Shown: in pieces, positions 22,190-28,845 of the stretch
Numbering within the stretch: position 1 is the stretch's first letter
Layout: every line of letters starts with the position of its first letter
Notes under the pieces: generated by a model
What the model was told of the DNA's origin: nothing
The model's database searches: none
Seen by the model: only the letters and a program-made list of their open reading frames with translations
From: Bdellovibrio sp.
GTDB lineage: Bacteria > Bdellovibrionota > Bdellovibrionia > Bdellovibrionales > Bdellovibrionaceae
Length of the DNA: 64,000 bases
Direction of reading: 5' to 3'
Assembly (NCBI GenBank): GCA_036677065.1
Contig: JAKFBS010000011.1
Span: 1 to 64,000, forward strand
Translations under genes and position numbers: made by a program

Positions 22190-23578
22190 CTACTCACTGG
22201 CTATTTGCGGTGTGTCGCCATCTGTACACGGCTCGCTAGGAACTGTCGGGTCTGAATTGGTCGGGTTCTCAGACTGACCAACTGAGACCGAAAACGCTGC
22301 GACTTTAGCCGCACTTGCATTCAGAATTTTTGCACTGTTGTTCGAAGTTGTACCGGTTGCGTAACTATTATAGTCAAAACCTGGGTTCGAAAAACGAGGT
22401 ATGCGAGTGTAAGTTCCGTAAGCCATAACGGTTCTGAATTTACCCGAAGAGTTTTCATAACCATCACTATGATTTAAGCCCATGTTATGACCTAACTCAT
22501 GCGTAAATGAAAATTGTTTAAACGCTGTCGTTTTCGTGATCGAAAAACCGGTGCTGAATGAAGATCCAACATAACCAATACCTGCAGTCGATGAATTATA
22601 ATAAGCCACCAATGAAACTAAATCGGCGCCGACTCTTTTACGTTCAGCATGAACCGCATCCCATTTACCATCGCTCGTGCCTTTTAAAGCCGACAAGTCA
22701 GATGAGAATGTGCTTTCACTTTGAGTTAAAGCCATGATTCCTACTAACCGAATGGCTAAATTCGCACCACTGGTTTGATACGCTTTATTTGAATCAGCAA
22801 TACCCATTTGAATTAAAGCTTTCATCGCATCCACGCCACCCACATTTTTTAAAGCATTGGGCGCATAGGCTACTAAGACATCCACCGTCGGAACCGCATC
22901 CATTGCCGTAACATCTTGAGCAGCCGCTTCAGTTTCCAGTGGTTGCGCAAAGTTTTGTGCGTTTTCGCCTTCTTCAGTTAAACAGTCTTCGCTGTGGTCA
23001 TGAATACTTTTAACTGTATGGGTGCCATCACCGGCAAAACGAATCTCGTAAGATTCCTGCGTTCCGTTTTCGCTAATATTGGCCGTTAACACATTATTGT
23101 TGATTACTAAAGTTACATTACTTAAGTCATCGTTATCAATTCTTCCCGTAGCTACGATGTTGTTCGCAGAATATTTCTTAACATCTTGTAATACGACGTT
23201 CACTGATTTGTTGTTCAGGAGGGGCAGATGAAAATTATTACTAGTTCTACTTAATAGACGTTGTCTCAATTGACCGACGTTAATACGAACTTGTCGTGTT
23301 GGCGTTTCATCTTGGTCATTGTTGTTTGTGTTTTCAGTATTGCTACGCACAGCAAAGTGAGTAACATCTTCAAAAAGATCATCGTTATTTTGAATATTAT
23401 TTGTATCCATTGCAGCAGCCATTGTTGTGGCTTCGCAGCTATTTGCCCCGTTCGTTGCCGAAGCAGCGTAAGGCTTGTCAGAAGATGACGAAAGTAAACA
23501 GGATTGTAATACACTCGTCAGAGTTAATGTTAATACCACGTTTCGTAAATTGTTTTTTGTTACTCTTGTGTTTTTCAT
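22190..23578 (-). CDS. Reprolysin-like (M12/metzincin) zinc metallopeptidase, probable lipoprotein
   Basis: HELGHNMGLNH zinc motif, Met-turn TVMAY, VDVLVAY start of the catalytic domain, lipobox-like LQS-C. Confidence 0.9.
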   Translation of the reverse strand: MKNTRVTKNNLRNVVLTLTLTSVLQSCLLSSSSDKPYAASATNGANSCEATTMAAAMDTNNIQNNDDLFEDVTHFAVRSNTENTNNNDQDETPTRQVRINVGQLRQRLLSRTSNNFHLPLLNNKSVNVVLQDVKKYSANNIVATGRIDNDDLSNVTLVINNNVLTANISENGTQESYEIRFAGDGTHTVKSIHDHSEDCLTEEGENAQNFAQPLETEAAAQDVTAMDAVPTVDVLVAYAPNALKNVGGVDAMKALIQMGIADSNKAYQTSGANLAIRLVGIMALTQSESTFSSDLSALKGTSDGKWDAVHAERKRVGADLVSLVAYYNSSTAGIGYVGSSFSTGFSITKTTAFKQFSFTHELGHNMGLNHSDGYENSSGKFRTVMAYGTYTRIPRFSNPGFDYNSYATGTTSNNSAKILNASAAKVAAFSVSVGQSENPTNSDPTVPSEPCTDGDTPQIASE

Positions 23579-24017
23579 GTGCAATTAGTGTTACGGGCGT
23601 TTTGCGAAATCACCAAGTCTTCGAAGAAAAACTAACCGAAGGTCTTTGCGCACATTGTTTTTTTAAATTGATAGAAGTGTAATTTAGCGAATTTAATTTC
23701 AGTGAACTAAAATATTTGCTACAATAGTTTTTATAAAATTCGCGCTTGTTTGTTTGAAAAAAATTTGCGAAGTTGCAACACCTTCACGCCGTTCTTGTTG
23801 TTAAAATCTTCACAATATTTCTTAACACCCGTTATATTTAAGTTAAGAACCCTATAAAAACCGCTACTGGTCTGAAAAATAGGGAAAATTGCCCGTGTAC
23901 AAAGTGCACAAAACCTATAAAAGAATTTTTATTTAGTACTTTTCGCTGGACGCTTTCTTTGAATTAAGGCATAAATCATTAAATAAATTCTTATTTGCAC
24001 TTAAGGGGTAAGCACCG

Positions 24018-26027
24018 GTGATCATTCAAAAACCATATAACAAGAGCTTTTTTAATGTAACTCAACTTGTACCCGTTACAGCTAAAACTCACACAACTGC
24101 TGAGCACGAGGGAATCTTTAACGAGATGCCTTTGCCAGCGTGTATGGTTGATTTAAAGAATAAAATTATTACAAAAATTAATCCGGCCCTTGAAAAGTTT
24201 TTGAATCACCGTGATCTAAAATTAAATGAATTAGATCTGGCTGTAGATCGCTTAGCTGACGGCGACTGGCTTATCAGCGAAGAATACACTGTAAAGTCAC
24301 CTAAGGGTGATTTTATCACTTATCTGTTAACATCCGGTGAACCTGTTCGCATTGGCGCTACTGAAATAAATATCCTTTATTTCAATGATGTGACGTTTTT
24401 AAAAAAAATGGAAACGGATCTTCAGCATAGCGAAGCCCGCTTTGCTAATTCACTGTTAACAGCCCATATTGGCTTATGGGATGCCGATCCCGTATCGGGC
24501 TTAACTTATATTTGCCCTCGTATGGCCAAAGACTGGGGCTTTGATCACTCACAAAACCCGGTGCAATCAACGACCATCGTGCAAGCCATTCACCCCGAAG
24601 ATCGCCCGGCAGTTTGGGCTTCAGTTGAAAAAGCCATGTTAGAAGGGCTTCCCTATCACGCTGAATACCGTGTGGTGCGCCCTGATGGATCTATTATTTG
24701 GATCGAAGGCCGTGGTGAATACATCAAAGATATCAATGGCTATCCCTTTCGTTTTTCAGGAACATCAATGAATATTACCGAGACCGTCGAAACCAAATTA
24801 AAATTAATGCAAGAACTCGAAGAACAAAAAGAGATCGTTAAGAGCTTAAAACAAATTCAACAAACAGCAGACTGCGCTCATAAAAACAAAAATGTTTTTT
24901 TAGCGAATGTCAGTCACGAAATCAGAACACCCTTAACCGCCATTTTAGGTTTTGCTGATTTACTTAAAGATGGGCCGATCTCAGAAATTGAAAAAACTCA
25001 GTTTATTGAAACGATTAGCCGCAATGGCAATACCTTGATTAAAATTATCGACGATTTATTAGATCTATCAAAAGTAGAAGCCAATTGTCTTGAACTAGAA
25101 AAAATTGAAATACCCATTCAACCGCTACTACATAGTGTCGTTCAACAATTTAAAGATAAAGCGCGCAGTAAAAATCTTTATATCTTATTAGATATCCAAA
25201 ATGAACTGCCGCACGCCATTTTGTCTGACAGTGTTCGCATCCAACAGGTTTTATCCAATTTATTAAGTAACGCCGTAAAATTCACCGATCAAGGCGGCGT
25301 TATCGTGCAAGTTAAGTCGATCATAAAAAAGCAATCAAAGACCGAAATTCAAATTCGTGTGACCGATACCGGAATTGGCTTAACCGAAGAGCAAAAAGTT
25401 CGTCTGTTTCAGCCCTATGCGCAAGCTGAATCCAGCACCACCAGAAAATTTGGCGGTACGGGTTTAGGTTTAGCCTTATCAAAACATTTGGCTCAGGCGC
25501 TAGATGGTGATCTAATTATTGAACGCTATGAAAAAGATGCGGGCTGTACGTTTACCTTTACTCTGACAGCAGAAATTCCAGCCGTTGCAAGAATCACCGC
25601 TTGTGACGCAACAAAGGCTTTACTACAGATGAATTTTGCACCGTTAGCCGGATTTAAAATTTTATTAGCTGAAGACTCATTAGATAATCAGTATTACGTT
25701 GAAAAATTCTTATCAAAAAATGGGGCTATCGTAACGGTGGCCGACAATGGTAATGAAGCTATTGAAAAATGCACCAAAGAACAATACGACGTTATTCTTA
25801 TGGATATCGAAATGCCGGTCATGGATGGCTATGAAGCCACTCGTAAACTTCGCCAATTAGGTTACAAGATGCCAATATTAGCGCTTACAGCCCATGCTAT
25901 GGCCGAAGAGCGGGGTAAAACGCGTGAAGCTGGCTGCGATGGCCACTTAACAAAACCTATTGATACACACCAGCTCTTATCTGCCTTAGAAAGCGTTTTA
26001 AAGACCTCTCTCAAAAAGAAACACTAA
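24018..26027 (+). CDS. Cytoplasmic PAS-domain hybrid histidine kinase/response regulator
   Basis: PAS/PAC (IHPEDR...EYRVVRPDGSIIWI), H-box VSHEIRTPL, NLLSNAVKFT, GTGLGL, receiver LAEDS...LMDIEMP...TKP. Confidence 0.93.
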   Translation: MIIQKPYNKSFFNVTQLVPVTAKTHTTAEHEGIFNEMPLPACMVDLKNKIITKINPALEKFLNHRDLKLNELDLAVDRLADGDWLISEEYTVKSPKGDFITYLLTSGEPVRIGATEINILYFNDVTFLKKMETDLQHSEARFANSLLTAHIGLWDADPVSGLTYICPRMAKDWGFDHSQNPVQSTTIVQAIHPEDRPAVWASVEKAMLEGLPYHAEYRVVRPDGSIIWIEGRGEYIKDINGYPFRFSGTSMNITETVETKLKLMQELEEQKEIVKSLKQIQQTADCAHKNKNVFLANVSHEIRTPLTAILGFADLLKDGPISEIEKTQFIETISRNGNTLIKIIDDLLDLSKVEANCLELEKIEIPIQPLLHSVVQQFKDKARSKNLYILLDIQNELPHAILSDSVRIQQVLSNLLSNAVKFTDQGGVIVQVKSIIKKQSKTEIQIRVTDTGIGLTEEQKVRLFQPYAQAESSTTRKFGGTGLGLALSKHLAQALDGDLIIERYEKDAGCTFTFTLTAEIPAVARITACDATKALLQMNFAPLAGFKILLAEDSLDNQYYVEKFLSKNGAIVTVADNGNEAIEKCTKEQYDVILMDIEMPVMDGYEATRKLRQLGYKMPILALTAHAMAEERGKTREAGCDGHLTKPIDTHQLLSALESVLKTSLKKKH

Positions 26028-26052
26028 TGTTATCCTTTTAACAGATTTTTTA

Positions 26053-26077
26053 TTTGTAAATACAAAATTATTTGTAT
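26053..26077. promoter_or_regulatory. Overlapping inverted repeats, candidate operator upstream of the diiron-enzyme operon
   Basis: ATACAAA-ATTA-TTTGTAT (26060-26077) overlaps TTTGTA-AA-TACAAA (26053-26066). Confidence 0.4.
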
Positions 26078-26189
26078 CATTTCGATCCTGCATATTTTTT
26101 AACACAGTCATGTTTGTTATTCTTAATCTTGGCGCTATCTAAAAAACCGGCGCTATCAACAATAACAACTAACGTGATTTGGGGTGTAA

Positions 26190-26837
26190 ATGACCGCTGT
26201 TAAAAAAATGTTTCAAGACGAAATGAATGCTGTTCAAAAAATGATTGTTGAAATGGACTGGAAAGACCCAGAGTTTTACGCCGAATGGCTGGCTCAGACT
26301 TACTTCTTTGTCTGTCACTCAACACGCATCATCGCCACCGCAGGAGTGAAGTTTCCGATAGAAAAAAATGCACTTCATAACCGGTTTTTACAGCATGCTA
26401 CCGAAGAAAAAAATCATGAAATCATCGCTATCAAAGATCTGAAACATTTAGGCCGCGATATTAAAGAGTTCTCGCCGCTTCCGGCAACACAGGCTTTTTA
26501 TCAGTCGCAATACTATTGGATCGATCAAGTTAACCCGGCATCTGTCTATGGCTATTTTTTAGTGTTAGAATGCCTGGCAATTCAATGCGGGCCGGTGTTA
26601 ATGCAAAAATTAAAACCGCATCATCCCGAAAAAAGTTTAACCTTCTTACGTATTCACGTTGAAGAAGATGAAGACCATATCAATGAACATAACGAAGTTT
26701 TAGATACTTTTAATCAAAAAGAAACTGAATACATTATCGAAAATTTAAAAGTCAGTGCTTATATGTATATACAAATTCTAAAAAGTGTTGAAGAAAAAGT
26801 TAGATCTAAGCGTTCATTCAACAAGAAATCTGCCTAA
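26190..26837 (+). CDS. Heme-oxygenase-like diiron (iron-containing redox enzyme; CADD/PqqC/TenA-fold) protein
   Basis: All-helical; metal-ligand motifs HATEEKNHE, LVLE and FLRIHVEEDEDH match the EExxH / E / HxxxDxxH pattern. Confidence 0.8.
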   Translation: MTAVKKMFQDEMNAVQKMIVEMDWKDPEFYAEWLAQTYFFVCHSTRIIATAGVKFPIEKNALHNRFLQHATEEKNHEIIAIKDLKHLGRDIKEFSPLPATQAFYQSQYYWIDQVNPASVYGYFLVLECLAIQCGPVLMQKLKPHHPEKSLTFLRIHVEEDEDHINEHNEVLDTFNQKETEYIIENLKVSAYMYIQILKSVEEKVRSKRSFNKKSA

Positions 26838-26849
26838 TTGGGTGCTTCG

Positions 26850-27572
26850 ATGAAAACAAATAGTTTATCTAATATTGATTTTACCTATCATGTGTTTTCA
26901 CCCAAAGCCTGGCGAGAAAAAAATCAGCCCGAACAAATGCAACAGGCCTTTGAAACGTGGCTAAAAGTTTGGACCGACACCTATAAAGGAAGGGATTTCG
27001 AAGTTAAAGCTGAAGAATTTATTCGCCACGATTTAATTTGCGCCGTGATGGCAAATGGTGAAGCGGCTGCAGTTCACTGTTACAGTTTTTTTGATATCGA
27101 CTCTAAACCCGATGTCAGCACTAAATATTTTCAGTTTTTTTCGCCAGAGTTTGTGAACAAGATGAAAGCTAAAAATATTCACACCGTCATGTCGATGGAA
27201 TACTTAACCGTGAATGAAAAATTTCGTTCTAGTGTAATCGGCTTTTCGCTTGGGCGTGCGCTGATCCAACTGGGTGTGCGTTTATTCGAACATTCTCCAG
27301 GGCATGCGATCGTGGCCCCGGCCAGAAAAGACGTCAAAGTTCATGAAATGGCTTATGACTGCGGTTTTACGTGCATTGAAGCGGATGTGATTCAGCGTGG
27401 ATTTGCCTGTGACATGATTGCTTATTTTAAAGGTGATCACAAAAATGTATCCGACCCATTCTTAAGCCGGATATGCGATCGTCTCTGGGATAATCGGGTG
27501 ATTTCTGAATCCATCGCTGAGCATGTTTTTGATAACGTGCCTGCCGCGATTCCTATTCGAAAAGTGGTCTAA
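26850..27572 (+). CDS. GNAT-fold acyltransferase, LuxI/FeeM (N-acyl synthase)-like
   Basis: SMEYLTVNEKFR..IGFSLGRALI (GNAT motif A) and EMAYDCGF (motif B); 240 aa with an insertion before motif A as in acyl-ACP-dependent synthases; 12 bp after the diiron enzyme gene. Confidence 0.6.
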   Translation: MKTNSLSNIDFTYHVFSPKAWREKNQPEQMQQAFETWLKVWTDTYKGRDFEVKAEEFIRHDLICAVMANGEAAAVHCYSFFDIDSKPDVSTKYFQFFSPEFVNKMKAKNIHTVMSMEYLTVNEKFRSSVIGFSLGRALIQLGVRLFEHSPGHAIVAPARKDVKVHEMAYDCGFTCIEADVIQRGFACDMIAYFKGDHKNVSDPFLSRICDRLWDNRVISESIAEHVFDNVPAAIPIRKVV

Positions 27573-28356
27573 CGTTATTCGTAAGAAATTTTTCTTCTGA
27601 AAAACGTTTTAATTCATACTCTTCTTGACGTCTTTGGCGCTCAAGTTCATCCGGGGTATTTACTAATTTTGCCGACAGGACTGCCACAAAGCAGTCCTGG
27701 GCATTATGATCTAGATCAGTCAGCGGAGCCACGAATTCTAATTTATACATAAATTCATTTTTTAAGGCTGATGCTGTTTCAACCACGGCATGCGGCGGAA
27801 TTTCTGAATGCACAATACGACGCTCAGCTAAAGCCACAGCCACATCGCCAAAGATTTTTTCGACAACTGTCGCGTCTTTACGGGCAAACAATTGATCCCA
27901 GGGTGTAGTTTCTAATTCATCTAAAGAATAACTGCATAATGAATAATAATTAAATGTGCGGTAAACCTGACGGGTTCCCATATACACTTCAACAATATGA
28001 TCGTTTTCTAAAATATTAAAAAATTCAGCCGGCGGCGCTAAACGTAATGAACGAAGCGCAAACCATAATAACTGTTTTTCTTGTACGGTATTGAAAAGTT
28101 CTTTTTGCTGTGAAGCCATCTGAAAAACATCTTTATAGATTTTCAGGCGATTTGAAATAGATGTGAACTCTGAATCATCTAACTTTAATGATTTAATATC
28201 AGCCGTATTAGAAAAAACTCTGAAAGTAGATCCAAGTTTAGCGGCCAGTTCATGCATGCGCAAAACTGTCGAACAAAACTCTTTGAATGTATTTGATAAT
28301 TCTCTTGCTGCGGGACTCGTTGAATTTCTAAGAATCGATTCCGTAACCTGAGACAT
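27553..28356 (-). CDS. Hypothetical protein with a PAS-like domain
   Basis: IVEVY...QVYRTFNYYSLCSYSLDELETTPWDQLF resembles the PAS signature N..F..(G/S)YS.EEL.G......L; SD GAGGTG before ATG 28356. Confidence 0.55.
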   Translation of the reverse strand: MSQVTESILRNSTSPAARELSNTFKEFCSTVLRMHELAAKLGSTFRVFSNTADIKSLKLDDSEFTSISNRLKIYKDVFQMASQQKELFNTVQEKQLLWFALRSLRLAPPAEFFNILENDHIVEVYMGTRQVYRTFNYYSLCSYSLDELETTPWDQLFARKDATVVEKIFGDVAVALAERRIVHSEIPPHAVVETASALKNEFMYKLEFVAPLTDLDHNAQDCFVAVLSAKLVNTPDELERQRRQEEYELKRFSEEKFLTNNVRPLFE

Positions 28357-28386
28357 AAACACCTCTTCTGAATCAAAAAAACAGAA

Positions 28387-28668
28387 TTAACTAGCTTTGG
28401 TTTTTTTCTTTTTCTTAAAGATCTTAGCTTCAATAGAACGCTTAGAATCCGAAACCATTGCCGTGACAACTTGGTCGCGACTTAATGCAAGCACGTCGAT
28501 CAAATGGTGAAAACAATGTGATGGTGGCGCACATAAACCGCGCTCCCAGTTAGAAACAAATTGCACATGCACTTTCAATGACTGAGATAATTCAGTCTGC
28601 GTAAAGCCTGCGCTTAATCTTTTTTCTTTTAAATAAACACCTAAGTTTTGAAAATCGCCTGTTTTCAT
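28387..28668 (-). CDS. XRE/Cro-C1 family helix-turn-helix transcriptional regulator
   Basis: LGVYLKEKRLSAGFTQTELSQSLKVHVQFVSNWERG is a canonical HTH_3 pattern. Confidence 0.92.
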   Translation of the reverse strand: MKTGDFQNLGVYLKEKRLSAGFTQTELSQSLKVHVQFVSNWERGLCAPPSHCFHHLIDVLALSRDQVVTAMVSDSKRSIEAKIFKKKKKTKAS

Positions 28669-28783
28669 TTATTTCGTGCCCCTATAATTACTATGATGAT
28701 TTACCGTTATACTAAAATATAATTCAGTTTAAAACACATCTTTGATATAAGTCTATTTTCAGTAAATACTTACATCACTGTCA

Positions 28784-28801
28784 ATTCTATAGACATAGAA
28801 T
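28784..28801. promoter_or_regulatory. Inverted repeat upstream of the XRE gene, candidate operator
   Basis: ATTCTAT-AGAC-ATAGAAT (7-4-7). Confidence 0.35.
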
Positions 28802-28845
28802 GTATTGTTTTTTTGTGCAAATAAAATATTATTTAAAAACTATGG

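Follow-up and report, generated by a model that had tools for sequence, protein, structure and literature searches.

A candidate signal synthesis-and-sensing cassette of Bdellovibrionota, pairing a diiron oxidase and a GNAT-fold synthase with PAS and XRE proteins

In LuxI/LuxR systems the synthase and sensor genes are often convergent, with a palindromic lux box before the synthase gene. In the VqmA-DPO system, a PAS domain serves as autoinducer receptor and is joined in VqmA to a LuxR-type helix-turn-helix (HTH). We describe here a four-gene cassette from positions 26,028 to 28,845 of a 64,000-nucleotide stretch of Bdellovibrio sp. DNA (assembly GCA_036677065.1, contig JAKFBS010000011.1, positions 1 to 64,000; this whole stretch is called the window), in which genes for a heme-oxygenase-like diiron oxidase (HDO) and an enzyme with the fold of Gcn5-related N-acetyltransferases (GNAT) converge on genes for a stand-alone PAS-like protein and an XRE regulator. 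With LuxI/LuxR systems (LasI, and the CoA-dependent RpaI and BjaI) the cassette shares a GNAT fold with a C-terminal extension, as well as orphan sensors in kin of this genome. It differs from them in that its synthase has no PF00765 match and has a dedicated oxidase partner, and in that, in place of LuxR, it has a stand-alone PAS protein together with XRE as its sensor. PF00765 was unmatched in this genome, and was over cut-off in none of the 201 genomes of the order that made up our survey sample.

Other described systems resemble the cassette in part. FeeM/NasY clusters (stieleriacine, thalassotalic acid, tyrazolone), according to PMC12479983, combine the N-acyl synthase fold with a proposed product desaturase; their oxidase is a nitroreductase, accompanied by a ThiF-like cyclase, whereas the cassette uses an HDO or a fatty-acid desaturase, has a linked sensor and regulator, and lacks a PF21926 match. 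By analogy, its chemistry would be nearest to pathways in which an N-acyl synthase works with a desaturating oxidase. HDOs are defined in PMC13108848 by a motif of three-His/three-carboxylate ligands, and MboA is described in PMC13185094 as an HDO desaturase/acetylenase turning a peptide side chain into an alkyne; the accessible parts of these two papers contain no characterised HDO with the partner set of the cassette. The N-acyl-cyclolysine (ACL) system of Bacteroidota is, by its description in PMC13419125, a phylum-wide N-acyl signal outside the N-acyl-homoserine lactone (AHL) family, although in another phylum. Bdellovibrio goes unmentioned in the available portion of that 2026 review of known signal classes, and Pseudomonas quinolone signals inhibit the predator (PMC8461301). 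In the literature searched, which left most subscription papers and bioRxiv supplements uncovered so that one may be missed, there was no description of the cassette, and none of an autoinducer made by these predators. The four genes are the following.

26190-26837, + strand: heme-oxygenase-like diiron oxidase, a predicted desaturase of 215 aa (PF14518, invariant ligands)
26850-27572, + strand: GNAT-fold putative N-acyl synthase (family GN1), 240 aa from ATG (AlphaFold2 model)
28362-27553, - strand: PAS-like stand-alone sensor candidate, 269 aa from GTG (AlphaFold2 model)
28668-28387, - strand: XRE (HTH_3) regulator, 93 aa, whose recognition helix, QF[IV]SNWERG, is conserved (HTH_3 profile)

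These four open reading frames form two convergent two-gene units, as a preliminary description of the window had reported, and the 3' ends of the GNAT-like and PAS-like genes do share 20 bp (27553-27572). Alternative starts exist for both of the latter: an in-frame TTG at 26838 gives a synthase of 244 aa, and an ATG at 28356 the 267-aa form of the PAS-like protein (database entry P0021). Promoter-like and terminator-like matches at the locus were no more than chance.

The cassette is real, lineage-wide and undescribed. The synthase family was found in 133 of the 201 genomes (180 matches) and the PAS family in 127 (253 matches), their tallies running nearly equal across 13 families; of 151 genomes sampled in the phylum, 47 have the synthase family. 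A single genome can have as many as 4 synthase matches and 6 PAS matches; the 3.39-Mb genome studied here has one synthase-family and two PAS-family genes. Linkage work drew on 150 listed matches for each family (of 253 for PAS, of 180 for the synthase). Among the matches listed, 67 of 150 synthases lie at most 3 kb from a listed PAS match. The remaining 83 were followed up by fetching 80 regions, three at contig ends being dropped; the synthase was re-detected in 79, and 64 of these have an HDO or a desaturase and 42 a PAS gene. A PAS gene is therefore within 3 kb of 109 of the 146 synthase copies examined (67 from listed coordinates and 42 of the 79 fetched). We also assembled 81 PAS-centred loci, consisting of 80 regions around listed PAS matches picked for diversity and the second locus of this genome. 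Within 3 kb, a synthase is present in 53, an HDO or desaturase in 56, both in 52, and synthase, oxidase and XRE together in 35, while 24 have none. The grouping is not chance, because 52 of the 81 PAS loci carry synthase and oxidase though genome-wide copies are few. The preliminary description would have given up its idea had the four genes not co-occurred in other genomes; they recur together across the order and the phylum. The convergent, overlapping layout is the commonest (83 of 121 junctions are convergent, 52 overlap), but is not fixed. Pairwise identities of synthase and PAS proteins are weakly correlated (rho 0.20, above all 300 permutations).

Among named relatives, Bdellovibrio sp. 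qaytius (L201) has an identical layout, B. bacteriovorus YOA24 (L231) has a cassette with no XRE next to it, and another cassette is found in an assembly of Bacteriovorax stolpii (L213). Homologue names and the Atlas both assign the lineage to Bdellovibrionota. A DNA-level search of 20 relatives gave short, weak matches only, the cassette being visible at the protein level only, and a plasmid collection gave no synthase match. Several variant loci were also observed. In L040, L041 and L042, PAS and XRE are kept while oxidase and synthase are gone at this place, leaving solo receptors; genome G198 has a near-identical enzyme pair at another place (L121). Orphan synthases with neither oxidase nor PAS are found in L136-L140, L144, L146, L147, L149, L150, L152 and L154, several of them behind a zinc carboxypeptidase gene. 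L088 and L090 have tandem cassettes, with an AMP-binding ligase gene before each and an MFS transporter between.

The synthase belongs to a family of 687 clusters at 50% identity, which we call GN1. Pfam and NCBIfam gave nothing for it, nor for the PAS protein of the window, and searches of PDB sequences with profiles of either returned weak, unrelated matches only. An AlphaFold model built from an alignment of 142 sequences (predicted local distance difference test, pLDDT, 92) has a GNAT fold, and Foldseek placed RpaI, FeeM and LasI at the top (E ~2e-6) with other GNATs close behind. In VIA comparisons the model matched RpaI (Z 15.7, root-mean-square deviation, rmsd, 3.4 over 198 aligned residues), BjaI (Z 14.9-15.0, 190-195 aligned), FeeM (Z 14.8, rmsd 3.4, 176 aligned) and LasI (Z 13.0, 178 aligned). 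The RpaI and BjaI alignments extend to model residue ~230, whereas generic GNATs mostly end near residue 195, and apart from LasI the other GNAT rows align 137-176 residues; on this model the synthase has the LuxI-type C-terminal extension. Since RpaI, BjaI and FeeM rank high and generic GNATs align over fewer residues, we regard the protein, from its modelled structure, as an N-acyl-synthase-shaped member of an unnamed family. The LuxI/FeeM likeness first proposed for it is thus borne out by shape, in the model and fold searches, and not by profile, PF00765 and PF21926 being unmatched. Residues at least 90% conserved in GN1 are W37, W41, F57, R59, Y93, E117, R126, R159, G172 and W213. E117 (96%), on strand 112-121, may correspond to the catalytic Glu that FeeM carries on its beta-bulge strand. 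In a comparison by eye with the conserved Arg/Trp/Asp residues that serve LuxI in SAM binding and cyclisation, the positions of Arg, Phe and Arg appear to be taken in GN1 by W37, W41 and H76, with E117 kept. The only match over cut-off to the FeeM profile (PF21926) in the genome is another gene (L199 1147-1998), by eye an OlsB-type ornithine-lipid acyltransferase, which adjoins an arginase-like gene and is unrelated to the cassette.

All 47 aligned cassette oxidases have, without variation, the diiron ligands that had been read from the oxidase sequence (E73, H76, E127, H156, D160 and H163). These three His and three carboxylates are the defining HDO motif, shared with UndA, CADD and MboA; the protein scores 44.3 bits against PF14518 (cut-off 28.9, E 2e-11), and its family profile matches 3dde (E 1e-18), MboA (E 9e-8) and, weakly, UndA in the PDB. 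A second cassette of this genome (C2:466493-469654; L001 5494-8654) holds in place of the HDO a membrane fatty-acid desaturase, together with PAS, an XRE 62% identical to that of the window, and GN2, a distant synthase homologue (hhalign probability 94.6, E 7e-8). There GN2 is divergent from the desaturase and converges on PAS and XRE, with a box, of the kind described below, in the divergent promoter. L161 and L179 have common flanking genes and sister synthases, and the same slot is occupied by a desaturase in one and by an HDO in the other. On the GN1 tree, the nine desaturase-only tips need 7 changes, being as scattered as shuffled labels, and the exchange of HDO and desaturase has therefore been repeated. 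Fusions join synthase to HDO (L122) and desaturase to synthase (P0136). Because fatty-acid desaturases have repeatedly taken its slot and because it resembles MboA, the cassette HDO likely acts as a desaturase, which narrows the "oxidised product" of the preliminary description: the oxidation is more likely desaturation than an unspecified one. Among other HDOs seen on the way, one of 514 aa (L238 4297-5841) has a fused C-terminal domain, by eye like a SAM-dependent methyltransferase. Distant relatives are plasmid-borne (L280, L281, L282, L279): those of Vibrio and Pantoea are in clusters of "thermostable hemolysin", AMP-ligase, HDO and SDR genes, that of Methylibium adjoins a crotonase gene, and that of the Bdellovibrio sp. 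HM001 plasmid has a cassette-like layout.

For the sensor candidate, absence of a PAS fold had been named as a reason to drop the proposal, and a PAS fold was predicted both by model and by fold searches. The AlphaFold model of the 267-aa form (pLDDT 88) comprises an unassigned helical N-terminal domain (~22-115) and a PAS core (~118-233). The Foldseek matches listed are chains containing PAS or LOV domains (best E 2e-3), VIA gave Z 5.3-7.6 with an rmsd of 2.7 over 104 residues, and the Atlas neighbours are PAS_9 and MEKHLA. H189 is 89% and C141 69% conserved. One natural XRE-PAS fusion was found, in a single draft genome (L081); a search aimed at longer, fused PAS-family proteins gave none, which is weak evidence. 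In 8 oxidase-synthase loci without PAS, an adjacent kinase of ~470 aa has 4-7 hydrophobic segments by a crude hydropathy scan, and this multi-transmembrane kinase stands in for PAS at 3 places on the synthase tree. The presence of a membrane kinase in the PAS slot suggests that the product is met outside the cell.

The XRE assignment held, with an HTH_3 profile score of 29.4 bits against a cut-off of 23. A dyad scan found TAAA-N9-TTTA in 26 of 72 regions upstream of synthesis units, versus 2.7 in shuffles. The form TAAAY-N7-RTTTA is upstream of 20 of 65 synthesis units with XRE nearby and 3 of 73 without, of 14 of 106 sensing units, and of 4 of 214 other genes in cassette loci, with 0-2 at control spacings among cassette genes; Fisher P values on these counts overstate significance, because kin are not independent. 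Twenty-five held-out loci, unused in finding the box, gave 15 sites versus 1.0 per control spacing. The TAAAY-N7-RTTTA form is absent from the window. A form one base longer, YAAATA-N6-TATTTR, matches there 3 times versus 0.07 expected, the pattern having been chosen after two of the three boxes were seen. The boxes and the kinase gene next to the first of them are as follows.

23980-23997: candidate XRE operator box TAAATA-N6-TATTTG, between divergent M12B metalloprotease and PAS hybrid kinase genes
24018-26027, + strand: cytoplasmic PAS-HisKA-HATPase-receiver hybrid kinase (Pfam), a candidate XRE target and not a core part
26057-26074: candidate XRE operator box TAAATA-N6-TATTTG, 5' of the oxidase-synthase operon
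28818-28835: candidate XRE operator box CAAATA-N6-TATTTA, 5' of the XRE-PAS operon

The box at 26057 is identical in G186, and in L039 a box precedes the oxidase by 51 bp; that at 28818 is identical in G194 and G186 and present as a variant in G198; for that at 23980, G194, G186 and G198 each have a box in the corresponding position. All three recur in G194 and G186, and G198, without enzymes here, retains two. In the whole genome there are 15 copies of YAAATA-N6-TATTTR, 12 of them non-coding, versus 2-5 copies for other spacings. The XRE clade of the window has an altered turn preceding the recognition helix, which could explain the longer spacer. The palindromic boxes before both operons are the predicted sites of XRE action, and feedback on the synthase promoter, as originally suggested, fits a candidate operator that appears common to synthesis and sensing units.

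Other elements near the boxes deserve mention. A direct repeat of GGCGCTATC at 26131/26149 was considered as operator and rejected, as it is not kept in L201 or L202 and occurs at 30 places in the genome; the duplication is enclosed by an inverted repeat, TTGTTATT...AATAACAA (26114-26168), upstream of the oxidase. The hybrid kinase gene, whose candidate box is 38 bp upstream, adjoins PAS and XRE in close kin L039-L042 only. The divergent M12B-type metalloprotease gene (22190-23584, - strand) has the same intergenic region, with box 23980, which makes it a possible output gene. Elsewhere in the genome, a box is found between divergent genes for a SIR2-like protein (453 aa) and a reverse transcriptase (601 aa), possibly a defence module (L287; G000:C8:42878-46301). 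Two boxes 30 bp apart precede a gene for a 369-aa lipoprotein-like protein in L285 (1631-1678) and L291 (1653-1700), and are kept in G086; among possible distant targets of XRE, this protein, with a weak beta-propeller match, is the strongest candidate. In a soil RNA library (share 0.05), contigs 85-99% alike extend over the kinase, oxidase and synthase genes and part of the PAS gene, leaving XRE uncovered; they come from one study, cannot show transcription, and were not counted as evidence.

We consider it probable, though well short of certain, that the cassette is a self-regulating circuit in which PAS detects an unsaturated N-acyl signal and passes it on to XRE, the chemistry and the binding steps being those that we infer. 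The synthase would move an acyl group from acyl carrier protein or coenzyme A onto a small amine, other than the homoserine lactone derived from S-adenosylmethionine, and the oxidase would put a double bond into the acyl chain or the product. After leaving the cell, the product would occupy the PAS pocket; PAS would contact XRE directly and, when ligand-bound, would lift this repressor off the boxes, giving more synthesis. Relief of an XRE repressor by liganded PAS would therefore be positive feedback, as in autoinduction. A wider proposal, of a phylum-wide quorum-sensing language peculiar to Bdellovibrionota, with unsaturated N-acyl signals from a new synthase family and an exchangeable desaturase, several channels in each genome, PAS-XRE or multi-transmembrane kinase readers and orphan receptors eavesdropping on other predators, is more tentative, and we give it slightly less than an even chance.

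A number of observations weigh against the proposed circuit. Parts of it are often missing: 15 of the 79 fetched synthase copies lack both oxidase and PAS, no synthase lies near 31 of 88 PAS genes, and XRE, taken at first as a full member of a four-gene unit, is an optional part, absent within 3 kb of 20 of the 57 synthase-linked PAS genes. The identity correlations for GN1-HDO, HDO-PAS, PAS-XRE and GN1-XRE stay inside the permutation range. None of the 142 synthase family members matches PF00765 or PF21926 at E 0.01, and ordinary GNATs equal AHL synthases on Z (14.7-15.2 versus 15.0-15.7). The PAS model reaches Z-scores no higher than 7.6, which is middling, and haem or flavin can also be ligands of PAS domains. 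As for the box, its AT-richness and its post hoc definition count against it. Among held-out loci it is present in 5 of 9 where no XRE was seen and in 7 of 16 with XRE, these loci being short and the absence of XRE in them therefore uncertain. Counts in five kin genomes (9-17) are 1.1-2.8 times those of a reversed control (5-9), so that many copies are due to chance, and the 15 boxes of the genome, examined as a regulon, gave no coherent set and no clear output genes.

The strongest of the other explanations, which we hold to be unlikely yet worth serious attention, is an operon for lipid or metabolite tailoring, making an unsaturated N-acyl lipid or an antimicrobial, where PAS and XRE would sense oxygen, redox or the intracellular product and no signal would pass between cells. 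Both oxidase types, HDO and fatty-acid desaturase, require O2, the partly conserved H189 and C141 of PAS could hold a cofactor, and AMP-ligases or transporters are added in some cassettes. Moreover, clusters with an N-acyl synthase and a desaturating oxidase make N-acyl dehydrotyrosines, whose function is unsettled (PMC12479983). This explanation is less easily reconciled with the exchange of PAS for multi-transmembrane membrane kinases, with a two-gene synthesis unit that in most loci stays so small, moves repeatedly and has multiple copies per genome, and with orphan PAS-XRE units, which resemble the solo receptors of signal systems more than lipid genes.

Distinctly less probable is a life-cycle cue within prey, whereby the product would accumulate in the closed bdelloplast, or report prey lipid supply, and so time growth or exit instead of serving as a count of free predators. 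The families are concentrated in Bdellovibrionota, and confinement would concentrate any acyl product. By gene order with respect to L231, from slt (Bd2462) to thioredoxin (Bd2468), the presumed HD100 oxidase, synthase and PAS genes are Bd2464, Bd2465 and Bd2467. In the HD100 array study (PMC2797640) these change 0.77, 0.64 and 1.04-fold on prey entry, the two enzyme genes thus dropping, and Bd2467 changes 2.4/1.8-fold in host-independent growth. The shifts are small and rest on this inferred mapping, and the array data do not separate the rival explanations. About one third of the genomes of the order have no match, and the loss of the enzymes at this place in close kin L040-L042 is a poor fit to a core developmental timer.

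We find it very improbable that the GNAT instead acylates a protein, be it PAS, XRE or a host target, in which case the unit would serve protein modification or act in the manner of a toxin-antitoxin pair, and no small molecule would be made. Protein N-acetyltransferases are among the fold matches (Z 13-14.5), and XRE proteins are often antitoxins, with NCBIfam matches that here are weak and below cut-off. That the GNAT might be an ordinary protein acetyltransferase was a doubt raised from the outset; although such GNATs tie on Z, the best full-length and longest structural matches are small-molecule N-acyl synthases, and the finding of GNATs fused with a fatty-acid desaturase or with an HDO also argues against it. 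Finally, that the two operons are unrelated neighbours, as PAS-XRE pairs without enzymes in close kin and the enzymes elsewhere in G198 might suggest, is scarcely credible and largely refuted by the linkage counts, about three quarters of synthase copies being linked in many gene orders and orientations and in several orders, and by the box common to both operons.

If the proposed circuit is true, the much-studied lineage of the "living antibiotic" gains a signal of its own, together with a new synthase family of ~690 clusters, a receptor whose PAS and XRE components are distinct proteins, and an HDO performing the job of a fatty-acid desaturase. Related cassettes are present in cultured relatives of Bdellovibrio and Bacteriovorax (L201, L213, L231), and with two small enzymes and an 18-bp candidate operator it can be tested directly whether predators sense their own numbers.

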